A DNA stretch of 55,029 nt from an uncultured bacterium (GTDB taxonomy: Bacteria > Krumholzibacteriota > Krumholzibacteriia > Krumholzibacteriales > Krumholzibacteriaceae). The stretch lies in contig CBDUYR010000016.1 of assembly GCA_965371515.1 (NCBI GenBank), positions 1-55,029 on the forward strand. Reading direction: 5' to 3'. A program made the translations under genes and the position numbers. Below, in pieces: positions 4,726 through 40,484 of this stretch. A model generated the notes under the pieces. The model ran no database searches. It had not been told where the DNA came from and saw nothing but the letters and a program-made list of their open reading frames with translations. Each line of letters begins with the position of its first letter. The stretch's first letter is position 1.

Positions 4726-6093
4726 ATGAGCGGCAAACGCAGAATATCACTCGACAGGGAGCTGTTTCCCTGGGAGGAGGAAATCCTCGAGAGGTGCGAG
4801 CTTTACCTCGTGGGTGGCGTCGTTCGCGACCTTTTTCTTGGCAGGGCCCACGAGACGCTCGATTTTGACTATATCGTATCGGGCATAGATGAGGATGATC
4901 TCCTCGCGCTGCTCGGGGAGATCGGCAGGGCCGACCTGGTCGGAAAATCGTTCGGTGTGATAAAATTCAGGACTCCCGAGGATCTCACCGTAGATATCGC
5001 CCTTCCGAGAACAGAGGTCTCTACAGGACCGGGGCACAGGGACTTCAAGGTCGTATCCGATCCGGACCTTCCGGTGGCCTCCGATCTGGAGCGCAGGGAT
5101 TTCACGATAAACTCGATGGCTCTGAGCCTGAGGGACTTCAAGCTGGTCGATCCACTCGGTGGAGCCAAGGACCTCGAGAAGAGGATACTGCGGGTGAACA
5201 GGGATACCTCCTTCGTTGAGGATCCCCTGAGGATACTGAGGGGCGTACAGTTCATGGGGAGGTTCGATCTCGAAGTGGAGCGCGGGACGAAAGCGCTGAT
5301 GGAGAGGGACAGGGATCTTCTCGAAACGGTCTCGATGGAGCGAGTAAAGGCTGAGCTGAACAAGATGATGCTCCTTGCCGACAGGCCGAGCGTCGGTTAC
5401 ATTTTCATGCACGAGACGGGTATCCTGCCTCTTGTCATTCCAGAACTCGAGGTCACCTGGGGTATCGAGCAGAACGAATTCCACCCGGACGACGTCTTCC
5501 ATCACAGTATCAAGAGCTGCGATTTCGCGGAGAAGGAGCTCCTGATACGGTGGTGCGCGCTTCTCCACGATCTGGGAAAGCCGAAGATGAAGATGGAGCA
5601 CGAAGGGCGAACGGTTTTTTACGGGCACGAGGAAGAGAGCGCGAGGCTCGCCGGGGAGATTCTCACAAGACTCGTATTCCCCGTCTCGTTCGTGAACAGC
5701 GCGAAGCATCTGATAGCCAATCACATGTTCATGATCACCGAGGAGTGGTCGGACTCAGCGGTGAGAAGGTTTATCGCGAGGGTAGGACCTGACAATCTCG
5801 ACGATCTCTTCGAGATAAGAAAAGCTGATGGGGGTTCGAGGGGCGACAGGGGGATCGGGGAAGAGGTCGAGTATTCGAGAACCCGTGTCGATAATGTGAT
5901 GCGCGAGGAAACCGCGTTCAAGAGAAACGATCTCGCCGTTACCGGCGCCGATGTAATGGAGATCGCAGGGATAGAGACCGGCCCGGAGGTAGGCGTGATA
6001 CTCGACGGGCTGCTCGAGGCGGTGCTTGACCATCCGGAATACAACAGCAGGGAGAAACTGGTAGAGCTGATAAAATCGAGGAAGGGGACATGA
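4726..6093 (+). CDS. cca: CCA tRNA nucleotidyltransferase with HD domain
   Basis: YLVGGVVRD..DFD, RRDFTINSMA, EDPLRILR and LLHDLGKP motifs. Confidence 0.9.
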   Translation: MSGKRRISLDRELFPWEEEILERCELYLVGGVVRDLFLGRAHETLDFDYIVSGIDEDDLLALLGEIGRADLVGKSFGVIKFRTPEDLTVDIALPRTEVSTGPGHRDFKVVSDPDLPVASDLERRDFTINSMALSLRDFKLVDPLGGAKDLEKRILRVNRDTSFVEDPLRILRGVQFMGRFDLEVERGTKALMERDRDLLETVSMERVKAELNKMMLLADRPSVGYIFMHETGILPLVIPELEVTWGIEQNEFHPDDVFHHSIKSCDFAEKELLIRWCALLHDLGKPKMKMEHEGRTVFYGHEEESARLAGEILTRLVFPVSFVNSAKHLIANHMFMITEEWSDSAVRRFIARVGPDNLDDLFEIRKADGGSRGDRGIGEEVEYSRTRVDNVMREETAFKRNDLAVTGADVMEIAGIETGPEVGVILDGLLEAVLDHPEYNSREKLVELIKSRKGT

Positions 6094-6096
6094 AAT

Positions 6097-6198
6097 GAGG
6101 CGGGCTCCCGCAACCTGGTGTCAGGGGTTTTGCTCGACCTGAACCGGCCGAGTAAGACCGTTAGGGGCAAAGGGTAATCACGGGAACCCTCCCCGTCT
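6097..6198 (-). ncRNA. Candidate novel structured small RNA (~100 nt)
   Basis: Follows a TTGACA-17-TATATT promoter. A 17-bp terminal stem with G-U pairs forms better on the minus strand. Two internal hairpins. No plausible ORF. Confidence 0.6.
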
Positions 6199-6204
6199 GA
6201 CTTC

Positions 6205-6233
6205 AATATAGGGAGAAATACCTATGCTGTCAA
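6205..6233 (-). promoter_or_regulatory. Sigma70 promoter TTGACA-N17-TATATT
   Basis: Near-consensus match read directly on the minus strand. Confidence 0.8.
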
Positions 6234-6296: not shown

Positions 6297-6608
6297 ATGA
6301 AGGAACTCGAAAAACTCATAAAGGATCTCAGGAAGCAGCTTCTGCCGTATCATCACGACCACGATCTGGAAAGCGGCAGAAAACGCTGGGGGGTGGGAGA
6401 TGAGGAATACCTCACATCATGGCTTGTTCAGCATCTGACGATGTGCCGCGATAGGAATCGCTGCTATAAGCGCGGGAGATGCGTCTATTACGACTACGGT
6501 GATCTAGCAAGGCGTAATTACGAAATATGCTATGACTTTCTTCTGAGGATGGAGAGCGGCGATATATCCTGTCGTTTCACAGAGGGTTCGGATGATTCCT
6601 CGGAATGA
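6297..6608 (+). CDS. Hypothetical Cys-rich small protein
   Basis: 103-aa ORF with AGGA RBS and five Cys. No family recognised. Confidence 0.6.
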   Translation: MKELEKLIKDLRKQLLPYHHDHDLESGRKRWGVGDEEYLTSWLVQHLTMCRDRNRCYKRGRCVYYDYGDLARRNYEICYDFLLRMESGDISCRFTEGSDDSSE

Positions 6609-6758: not shown

Positions 6759-6774
6759 TGGCACATATATTGAT
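6759..6774 (+). promoter_or_regulatory. Putative sigma54 promoter of dnaK (TGGCAC-ATATA-TTGA)
   Basis: Perfect -24 box with a GA variant at -12. IHF-like site at 6721-6733 and an inverted repeat at 6633-6654 upstream. Confidence 0.55.
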
Positions 6775-6825: not shown

Positions 6826-8754
<1,929 letters not shown>

Positions 8755-39387: not shown

Positions 39388-39589
39388 TAAGACCGGGATA
39401 AGCGGCAGTAATTGCGTAAAATTTACCACCTCGCTTGATTAATATGGGTATTATTACCTATATTTTGATACGGGTGGTCTGCCTGACAACAAAAGCACAA
39501 AAGCGTGGCAATCGCCTAGTGCTTGCGCAACAGCGTCTTACGCATGATAGATAAACTGTTTTCCATATAGAGCGGCTCAGGCGATGATA

Positions 39590-39668: not shown

Positions 39669-40484
39669 TTGGTAGTCTTCAACCGAACAACACTTGACAG
39701 CCTGGACATGTCGATTCCGATGGCAAGGACCGCTCTGGATCCTCTTGTCAGCGAGATCGGATACCTGGCCGGCATAGTCGATAGAGATGAGACAGGGATG
39801 TCCTCTGCGTCCGAGAGGATCAAGAGGATATTCGACGTCATTTTCGCGGGAGCGGCTCTTCTGCTCCTTTCGCCGATCATCATGATGGTCGCTGTATTTA
39901 TCAGGTTGGAGTCCTCCGGTTCGGTCTTCTTCCAGCAGGAGAGGATAGGACTGAACAGGAGAAAGAACGATCGCCGGAGATGCGCCTTGGACGGATACGA
40001 CGGACATGACCGGAGAAGGGACGACGACAGGCGGAAGGAAATACACGCCGGCAAGCCGTTCAACATATACAAGCTCAGGACCATGCGCTTCGACGCGGAA
40101 AAGGGTGGACCGACACTCTCCTGCAAGGGCGATTCAAGGATAACGAAGATCGGTCACCTGCTCCGACGCACGCGGATCGACGAGATCCCGCAGTTCATCA
40201 ATGTCATAAAGGGCGAGATGAGCATCATCGGGCCGAGGCCCGAGAGGTCCTTCTTCATCAGCCAGGTCCGCCAGGATGTACCCGAATTCCCACTGAGACT
40301 GAAGGTAAAGCCCGGGATAACCGGACTCGCACAGGTCGAGGACGGCTATACCGATACGGTGGAGAAGATGACGGGGAAGCTCTACTACGATCTCAAGTAT
40401 ATCTCCCAGCTCTCCGTTCCCCAGGAGATCAGTATTCTGTTCAAGACGGTCTTCGTCGTCATATCGGGAAAAGGCGCCTGTTGA
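39669..40484 (+). CDS. Priming polyprenyl-phosphate sugar transferase (Bac_transf)
   Basis: KRIFDV, YKLRTM, RIDEIPQF, MSIIGPRPE, KPGITGLAQV. Confidence 0.93.
   Translation: MVVFNRTTLDSLDMSIPMARTALDPLVSEIGYLAGIVDRDETGMSSASERIKRIFDVIFAGAALLLLSPIIMMVAVFIRLESSGSVFFQQERIGLNRRKNDRRRCALDGYDGHDRRRDDDRRKEIHAGKPFNIYKLRTMRFDAEKGGPTLSCKGDSRITKIGHLLRRTRIDEIPQFINVIKGEMSIIGPRPERSFFISQVRQDVPEFPLRLKVKPGITGLAQVEDGYTDTVEKMTGKLYYDLKYISQLSVPQEISILFKTVFVVISGKGAC

Follow-up and report, generated by a model that had tools for sequence, protein, structure and literature searches.

Paired 5′ and 3′ ends are a hallmark of tRNA, 5S, signal recognition particle (SRP), 6S, Y, and RNase P RNAs, and are unusual for base-pairing small RNAs (sRNAs). 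Among the sRNAs closest to the element described here, RsaE/RoxS of the Firmicutes is about 100 nt long, has its own promoter and terminator, and displays unpaired CCCC-containing motifs; it is Hfq-independent, unusually widely conserved for an sRNA, and carries a repressor operator in its promoter. Cyanobacterial Yfr1 is short and presents, throughout its lineage, an unpaired, ultra-conserved motif of 11-12 nt that is rich in C and A and lies between helices. The subject of this work is an RNA gene on the minus strand of a 55,029-nt stretch of DNA (contig CBDUYR010000016.1 of GenBank assembly GCA_965371515.1, an uncultured member of the Krumholzibacteriaceae), which resembles, or appears to resemble, both sRNAs in these respects and shares its paired ends with the first group. 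The whole stretch is referred to as the window, and the assembly as the source genome. Krumholzibacteriota is an uncultured phylum for which the papers listed in a literature search are, by titles and abstracts, ecological or metabolic, and in which no published non-coding RNA was found at that level.

Comparative sequence evidence indicates that the minus-strand gene is genuine and encodes, as a transcription unit of its own, a small structured RNA whose family had not been described before. A search of 41 related genomes at the DNA level returned clear homologs (E<0.001) in seven besides the source genome, with the weaker matches all falling on the 3′ half, which contains the conserved core described below. 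A covariance model built from five sequences of the window's genus, with two helices (P1 and P2) as its structure (R1), found one full-length match each in 28 of the 52 genomes of the order, and a model rebuilt from these 28 sequences (R2) found one match per genome in 54 of 151 sampled Krumholzibacteriota genomes. The alignments discussed here hold 28 or 53 sequences.

The end-to-end helix, P1, has 17 positions (GGGGAGGGUUCCCGUGA/UUGCGGGAGCCCGCCUC), comprising 16 pairs, one A-G mismatch, and four G-U pairs among the 16. Folded singly, the source RNA reaches -48 kcal/mol (z = -2.6; 3/200 shuffles as good), which only modestly beats shuffled sequences, so that the weight of the evidence comes from the homologs. 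In the 28-sequence alignment, 89.2% of cells were paired, 24 of 28 pairs had changed on both sides, and 0/500 shuffles did as well, with 42-50% of cells paired in controls in which the partner was slid by 1-3 columns; the corresponding values for the 53-sequence alignment were 87.3%, 26 of 28 pairs, 0/500, and 41-47%, all of these counts leaning toward the structure and overstating independence, since related genomes were compared and their sequences were aligned to the structure of the model. Within P1 of the 53 sequences, 14 of the 16 modeled pairs had both partners altered, 92.3% of cells were paired, two G-C pairs were near-invariant (53/53 and 52/53), and the 12 inner pairs were retained in essentially all homologs. 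P1 appeared in the minimum-free-energy fold of 53/53 sequences with 16-20 pairs, and an independent MAFFT/RNAalifold analysis of 12 sequences recovered an identical P1 with eight covarying pairs. The RNA was assigned to the minus strand because the 12 inner P1 pairs contain about 60 G-U cells, which would read as A-C mismatches on the opposite strand, because covariance-model scores were 126-134 bits forward vs. 21-24 bits in reverse (20.7 bits for the source locus), and because the promoter is conserved and T-rich sequence follows P1.

The second helix, P2, is a 7-bp hairpin in the minimum-free-energy fold, with arms CUCGGCC and GGUCGAG, for which relatives show compensatory changes (CCCGGCC/GGUCGGG, CUCAAC/GUUGAG, and GCGGGG/UUCCGC). 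Its length and sequence vary by genus: three species of the window's genus have a short P2, elsewhere it is extended by 25-30 nt (RNA of 130-139 nt), and its alignment is unreliable beyond the closest genera. The RNA would measure about 105 nt in the source genome, with a predicted start near 6198 and a predicted end in the tail at 6096-6091; it spans 110-139 nt in relatives. In the folding models, P1 and the variable P2 hold open a large internal loop, whose two strands, UUUGCCCC (5′) and ACCCCUGACACC (3′), are both conserved and rich in C. Inspection of the alignments by eye revealed no conserved competing alternative pairing, pseudoknot, or tertiary pairing.

An earlier note on this DNA, made from the sequence alone, had proposed a new stand-alone non-coding RNA, and its independent, conserved gene was borne out, together with the 17-bp end stem, now seen to covary, and the enclosed pyrimidine-rich strand, which is present as UUACCCUUUGCCCCUAAC at 6177-6160. 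The note's model of the inner structure fared differently. The two hairpins placed inside the stem, CGGUC/GGCCG and GGUUCAGG/CCUGACACC, are unsupported: CCUGACACC is near-invariant and unpaired, and its supposed partner GGUUCAGG is either unconserved or displaced by insertions of 25-30 nt. Pairings of the type CCUG/CAGG and GGUUCAGG/CCUGACACC were rejected, as the core is followed in relatives by CACCACAU, CACCGAUU, or CACCCCUU and these differences are not compensated. The complementary "loops" CUCGGCC and GGUCGAG, from which a kissing loop, pseudoknot, or switch had been suggested, turned out to be the two arms of P2, and nothing was seen that would support any of these three.

Conservation is concentrated in the strands between the helices. 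CUGAC occurs in 53/53 homologs and CUGACAC in 51/53, mostly inside (G/A)UACCCCUGACACC; in the source RNA it lies within ACCCCUGACACC. The exact core 11-mer is found in the source genome at the RNA locus and at one unrelated coding site, and nowhere else, and the spacing between core and P1 is fixed across homologs. The 5′ motif reads UUGCCCC in most homologs, with the variants UUUCC, UGUCCC, and CAGCCCC, and several clades carry an additional UACUCGAC immediately before P2. Both the joining strand J1/2 and the core strand stay unpaired in the predicted folds, UUUGCCCC and CCCCUGACACC being the stretches predicted to be single-stranded. The core stays near-constant vs. neighboring proteins, which fall to about 45% identity.

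Upstream of the RNA lies a predicted sigma-70-type promoter that fires toward the neighboring cca gene. Called near-perfect in the earlier note, TTGACA-17-TATATT fits 11/12 consensus positions in a promoter scan of the minus strand and is conserved: the -35 hexamer is exactly TTGACA in 46/53 homologous loci and TTGAYN in 53/53, and its distance from the RNA does not vary; the spacer measures 17-18 nt in 52/53; and TATATT is the most frequent -10 hexamer (20/53). P1 begins about 11 nt downstream of the -10 hexamer. At the other end, 47/53 homologs have T at six or more of the 12 nt that follow P1, and 32/53 have a T-run of at least four; the tail of the source genome is weak (5 T of 12 nt, longest run 3). 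As P1 directly precedes the U-rich tail, it would double as the stem of an intrinsic terminator; a simple terminator was not called at the locus by a scan that takes loops of 3-8 nt only.

The promoter spacer of the source genome contains a palindrome that is kept across the genera of one family (f1; ATAGGT/ATGGGT ... ACCTAT) and is absent from the promoters of families f6, f9, and f3; those of f6 and f9 have an A-rich, UP-like tract ahead of the -35 hexamer. The palindrome might serve as an operator bound by a dimeric regulator. It was rejected as a general feature of stable-RNA promoters, as it was not found upstream of the 38 ARAGORN tRNA genes of the source genome or of its transfer-messenger RNA (tmRNA), 6S, and SRP genes. 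A second promoter with the same spacer palindrome, TTGATT-17-TATATT (ATGGGTATTATTACCTAT), lies at 39434-39462 (+) of the window; it precedes a leader of about 200 nt that extends to 39668 and is not unusually structured (z = +1.55), followed by a Bac_transf sugar-transferase gene (39669-40484). Judging by the repeats, the two promoters may share a regulator.

Table 1. Features of the RNA locus and its neighboring genes in the window (strand -, minus; +, plus).
Feature	Position	Strand	Basis or details
Whole RNA, covariance-model match	6091-6199	-	R1 125.9 bits, R2 102.6 bits; single match in source genome
-35 hexamer TTGACA	6228-6233	-	Promoter scan and homologs
Promoter spacer, 17 nt	6227-6211	-	
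-10 hexamer TATATT	6205-6210	-	Promoter scan and homologs
Inverted repeat ATAGGT-N6-CCCTAT, in spacer, overlaps -10	6208-6225	-	Conservation in family f1
P1 5′ strand GGGGAGGGUUCCCGUGA	6178-6194	-	Fold and covariation
J1/2, unpaired CU-rich strand UUACCCUUUGCCCCUAAC	6160-6177	-	Minimum-free-energy fold
Conserved UUUGCCCC within J1/2	6171-6164	-	Homologs
P2 hairpin	6126-6159	-	Arms CUCGGCC 6152-6146 and GGUCGAG 6139-6133; loop GGUUCA 6145-6140; base GGU/ACC
Conserved core ACCCCUGACACC, mostly unpaired (J2/1)	6117-6128	-	Homologs
P1 3′ strand UUGCGGGAGCCCGCCUC	6097-6113	-	Fold and covariation
3′ tail AUUUCA, weak U-run, overlaps cca stop codon (6091-6093)	6091-6096	-	
cca-type nucleotidyltransferase	4726-6093	+	PolyA_pol head, RNA-binding, HD, and tRNA_NucTran2_2 domains; convergent, downstream of RNA
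dnaK	6832-8754	+	Divergent, upstream of RNA
103-aa Cys-rich helical protein	6297-6608	+	Between RNA gene and dnaK, divergent from RNA; no Pfam family

No described RNA family accounts for the locus. A scan of the window with Rfam 15 (4227 families) at the gathering score gave nothing there; at E<=10, the locus region yielded chance-level matches to MIR6020 and SIB_RNA alone (E about 6), and in a set of 18 diverse homologous loci the RNA itself drew no match. A literature search with the core sequence gave no bacterial RNA among the matches listed. The window contains its own 6S RNA, canonical and full length (RF00013, 16398-16584 (+), 74.7 bits), and RF00013 does not match the new locus even at E<=10, so that an identity with 6S was rejected. 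The sole SRP RNA match (RF00169) of the source genome lies at contig C4:54974-55073 (75.7 bits), and an SRP reading of the locus was rejected; tRNA or tRNA-like identity was discarded because none of the three tRNAs called in the window by ARAGORN is at the RNA and the Rfam tRNA matches lie elsewhere; the tmRNA of the source genome is also located elsewhere. Three protein families were searched for in the source genome, which is 99.6% complete, and were not found: TROVE (Ro/Rsr; PF05731), on which a Y RNA or YrlA reading was rejected; Hfq (PF17209), on which an Hfq-dependent sRNA was rejected; and CsrA (PF02599), on which, together with conserved loops that are C-rich and hold no GGA repeats, a CsrB/RsmZ-type sponge was rejected. 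A kink-turn, a hammerhead core, a T-loop, anticodon-loop mimicry, and a boxA-like element were each compared by eye and rejected, as their defining positions do not fit.

The gene downstream of the RNA is convergent (cca) in 48/48 loci with enough flank, and a cis riboswitch or leader was therefore rejected, as the earlier note had argued from the absence of a sense-strand gene beyond the RNA. Its call of a non-coding RNA family absent from Rfam also holds, with no match at the gathering score and no credible one at E<=10. That note had further allowed that the element might match a known family, lack conservation or covariation, or be merely a cca terminator; what was found instead is a set of 53 homologs, covariation at 14/16 P1 pairs, and a gene with its own promoter.

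The family is genuine and well supported by these sequence comparisons and is limited so far to five Krumholzibacteriota families. By R2, the RNA is present in f1 (26/32 genomes), f2 (1/1), f3 (3/6), f6 (15/17), and f9 (8/9), and absent from f4 (0/61), f7 (0/10), f5 (0/5), and f8 (0/9); in five genomes checked from the RNA-less families, cca was found without a comparable intergenic element after it. Outside the phylum, there was no match in 121 genomes of the phylum of a Zixiibacteriota-titled genome (0/121) or in four single genomes of other phyla (0/4), and the one match in 151 genomes of the phylum of an Ignavibacteria-titled genome was rejected as a plain terminator hairpin after a tRNA. 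A pattern scan of metagenomes gave at least 80 loci (at least 119 stretches), 18 of which were confirmed by R2 at E<=5.2e-5; the loci beyond those 18 were chance pattern matches or weak. A search of sequencing runs listed 19, all DNA-type metagenomes, and no RNA run. One record titled 'Patescibacteria group bacterium' (L034 / L172; G167, G010) has a cca 58% identical to that of the window and carries the RNA at contig coordinates identical to those of Krumholzibacteriota genome G010; its title is probably a mislabel.

The RNA gene is embedded in a conserved gene order. Placed by tblastn, with Pfam confirmation on 120 flanking open reading frames (ORFs), cca is convergent and downstream in 48/53 loci, the remaining five having <=201 nt of flank, and no same-strand gene lies downstream of the RNA in any of the 48. 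The cca stop codon is a few to a few tens of nt from the modeled 3′ end of the RNA, with an overlap of <=7 nt in some loci. On the other side, dnaK is upstream and divergent in 51/53 loci, the remaining two having <=501 nt of flank. The cca/RNA/dnaK order holds while cca identity drops to 45-47%. Because cca and dnaK are equally conserved, synteny singles out neither neighbor as a partner of the RNA. A 161-aa TTG-started ORF with no Pfam match (5721-6206 (-)) overlaps the RNA and is probably spurious, because it is antisense to the 3′ end of the well-supported cca gene.

Several further observations concern the upstream neighbors. A sigma-54-type promoter, TGGCAC-N5-TTGA, lies upstream of dnaK at 6759-6773 (+); TGGCA[CT]-N5-TTG occurs in 44/51 homologous dnaK leaders and in 0/51 on the opposite strand, several of the others having TGGTA-N6-TTG, and the source genome encodes rpoN (Sigma54_DBD, 214 bits). 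A sigma-54-driven dnaK would be unusual. The 103-aa protein encoded between the RNA gene and dnaK is present in 36 loci of families f1-f3, with C50, C56, C62, C78, W31, and W42 invariant in a 30-sequence alignment; AlphaFold2 predicts it to be all-helical (predicted local distance difference test score 74.8), no PDB match was found at E<=0.001, and neither Pfam nor the fold search at that threshold gave an RNA- or DNA-binding lead. At the equivalent place in f6 and f9 sits an ORF of 104-121 aa that seems unrelated. In five loci (L131, L139, L160, L162, and L165), long ORFs on the strand opposite to the one on which tblastn locates dnaK give strong matches to PF10712 (NAD-GH), with E down to 1e-94; we interpret these as artefacts of reading dnaK antisense rather than as genes for glutamate dehydrogenase.

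As to function, we tentatively favor, with somewhat less than even confidence, a stable, protein-binding RNA of the ribonucleoprotein (RNP) type that presents a C-rich internal loop of fixed sequence and geometry. The stand-alone gene would be strongly transcribed from its sigma-70-type promoter, with transcription ending at P1 and the U-rich tail; the rod shape, sealed at both ends, would make the RNA long-lived; and a conserved cellular partner would recognize a platform made up of that internal loop and the invariant G-C pairs of P1, set at a constant distance from it. This partner would most likely be a protein, the RNA acting in trans as an RNP component or decoy, as 6S, Y, and SRP RNAs do; cis regulation is not part of the proposal. 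We favor the RNP reading because of the paired ends, the invariant P1 pairs, the conservation of both loop strands, the class-level conservation, and the single copy. The fixed core-P1 spacing alongside the two conserved loop strands, the UP-like A-rich tracts of the f6 and f9 promoters, and the lack of enrichment of complementary sites at translation starts relative to shuffled motifs point the same way. Other observations weigh against the RNP reading. The usual partners of bacterial small RNAs, Hfq, TROVE/Ro, and CsrA, are the very proteins not found in the 99.6% complete source genome; base-pairing is the mode of action of most characterized bacterial sRNAs that have a promoter and terminator to themselves; Hfq-independent sRNAs typically use unpaired C-rich motifs as seeds; and the f1 palindrome suggests regulated, not housekeeping, expression. 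The leaning of the pair counts and the limited reach of the P2 alignment, given above with those results, belong on the same side.

Several of these points are shared with a competing interpretation, possible in our view and less probable than the RNP reading, in which the RNA is an Hfq-independent, trans-acting base-pairing sRNA whose UUUGCCCC and ACCCCUGACACC are seeds for the G-rich ribosome-binding regions of several mRNAs, as in RsaE/RoxS and Yfr1. An independent unit of 105-139 nt with its own promoter and terminator, two conserved C-rich motifs that are single-stranded in the folds, and an operator-like palindrome in the f1 promoters, suggesting conditional expression, would all suit such an sRNA, and a genome in which neither Hfq nor CsrA was found fits a strong, chaperone-free C/G seed. 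Multi-target seeds can stay invariant over class or phylum distances, as in RsaE and Yfr1, so that the depth of conservation also counts for base-pairing. The search for targets, however, gave little. Nine-mer complements of the core at crude start calls of the source genome numbered 15 vs. 6-31 for ten shuffled controls, a comparison of low power, as is that for the 5′ motif, with 12 complements at the same crude calls vs. 6-110 for shuffled motifs. The top candidate, UCAGGGGU in the Shine-Dalgarno sequence of a TonB-like gene (C37), was found in just 3/52 genomes of the order, the source genome included, again with low power. The dnaK leaders showed no special complementarity (RNAduplex, 51 leaders, mean z = -0.1, a value from full-length duplexes, which are not meaningful here), and seeds placed in an internal loop closed by a 17-bp end helix would be an unusual topology.

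The remaining explanations are considerably weaker. We consider it improbable that the element is a conditional terminator, aptamer-like or temperature-sensitive, that gates antisense read-through into cca and so tunes that gene. Convergence with cca in all 48 testable loci, with the stop codon close to the RNA 3′ end, a conserved junction-like core resembling an aptamer layout, and the weak U-tail AUUUCA of the source genome, which makes some read-through plausible, would agree with it; against this, P1 forms with 16-20 pairs in every minimum-free-energy fold and no conserved competing pairing was seen, dnaK adjacency is as conserved (51/51 testable loci), so that the synteny is not cca-specific, and there is no likeness to any Rfam riboswitch. 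Still less likely is a trans-acting self-processing or ligand-binding RNA, that is, a ribozyme or orphan aptamer in which two helices flank a conserved core. Near-invariant nucleotides on both strands of a two-helix junction whose helices covary are what such an RNA would show, but 18 diverse homologs gave no Rfam ribozyme or riboswitch match at E<=10, no conserved pseudoknot or tertiary pairing was seen by eye, and the core is small. The least likely explanation, to which we give almost no weight, is that there is no RNA gene at all and the element is a mere cca terminator or a chance palindrome. It does immediately follow the cca stop codon, and its single-sequence fold stands out at z = -2.6 only; yet the U-run after the helix is on the strand opposite cca, a conserved promoter is directed at cca in 53/53 loci, G-U pairs and model scores favor the minus strand, and a terminator has no need of invariant loop sequences.

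Returning to the RNP reading, its more specific form would make the RNA a component or decoy of an undescribed, housekeeping-type lineage RNP and, most boldly, a 6S-like decoy for an alternative RNA polymerase holoenzyme, a proposal to which we assign a very small chance, slightly below that of a ribozyme or orphan aptamer. The target of the decoy in this boldest form, a long shot, would be a holoenzyme other than the one bound by the normal 6S RNA of the genome. CUGACAC and, 3-4 nt beyond it, the conserved UURC at the opening of P1 bear a loose likeness to the sigma-54 -24/-12 consensus, CTGGCAC-N5-TTGC, and the RNA gene stands back to back with the sigma-54-type dnaK promoter in 44/51 loci, with rpoN in the source genome. 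The sigma-54-decoy idea is a long shot because the likeness fails at the critical GG dinucleotide and at the spacing.

Whichever function applies, the RNA bears the marks of an important cellular RNA: a single copy, a near-consensus promoter, a covarying end helix, and a near-constant core. A usable covariance model and an alignment of 53 sequences are available for the new family, which could enter RNA databases, and its C-rich internal loop is a concrete handle for a partner search. Should its partner prove to be a protein, the RNA would be part of a new RNP specific to the lineage; should the RNA act by base-pairing, it would give the phylum its first described sRNA regulator, one unusual for its helix-sealed ends.

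Compared with the known sRNAs introduced at the outset, the new RNA has no sequence or model similarity to RsaE/RoxS, comes from a different phylum, has yielded no targets, and holds its C-rich strands in a sealed internal loop rather than in apical loops or linkers; unlike Yfr1, it has no Rfam match, is longer, and flanks its motif with the long-range P1 and the variable P2 instead of two local hairpins. The likeness to RNAs of known RNPs lies in overall architecture. Bacterial Y RNAs (YrlA/Yrn1) are likewise about 100 nt long, with a long stem of the 5′ and 3′ ends enclosing a pyrimidine-rich internal loop, whereas the new RNA has no Rfam match and, by ARAGORN, no tRNA-like module. The small SRP RNA (4.5S, RF00169) is also a hairpin-like, single-copy RNA of about 100 nt, with conserved protein-binding internal loops; the new RNA differs from it in having neither the SRP domain IV motifs nor a model match. 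6S RNA (SsrS, RF00013) is longer, at about 180 nt vs. 105-139 nt, but it too is a stand-alone, single-copy rod closed by paired ends, with a large internal bubble between closing and terminal stems; the new RNA is, after the manner of 6S, a candidate protein decoy.

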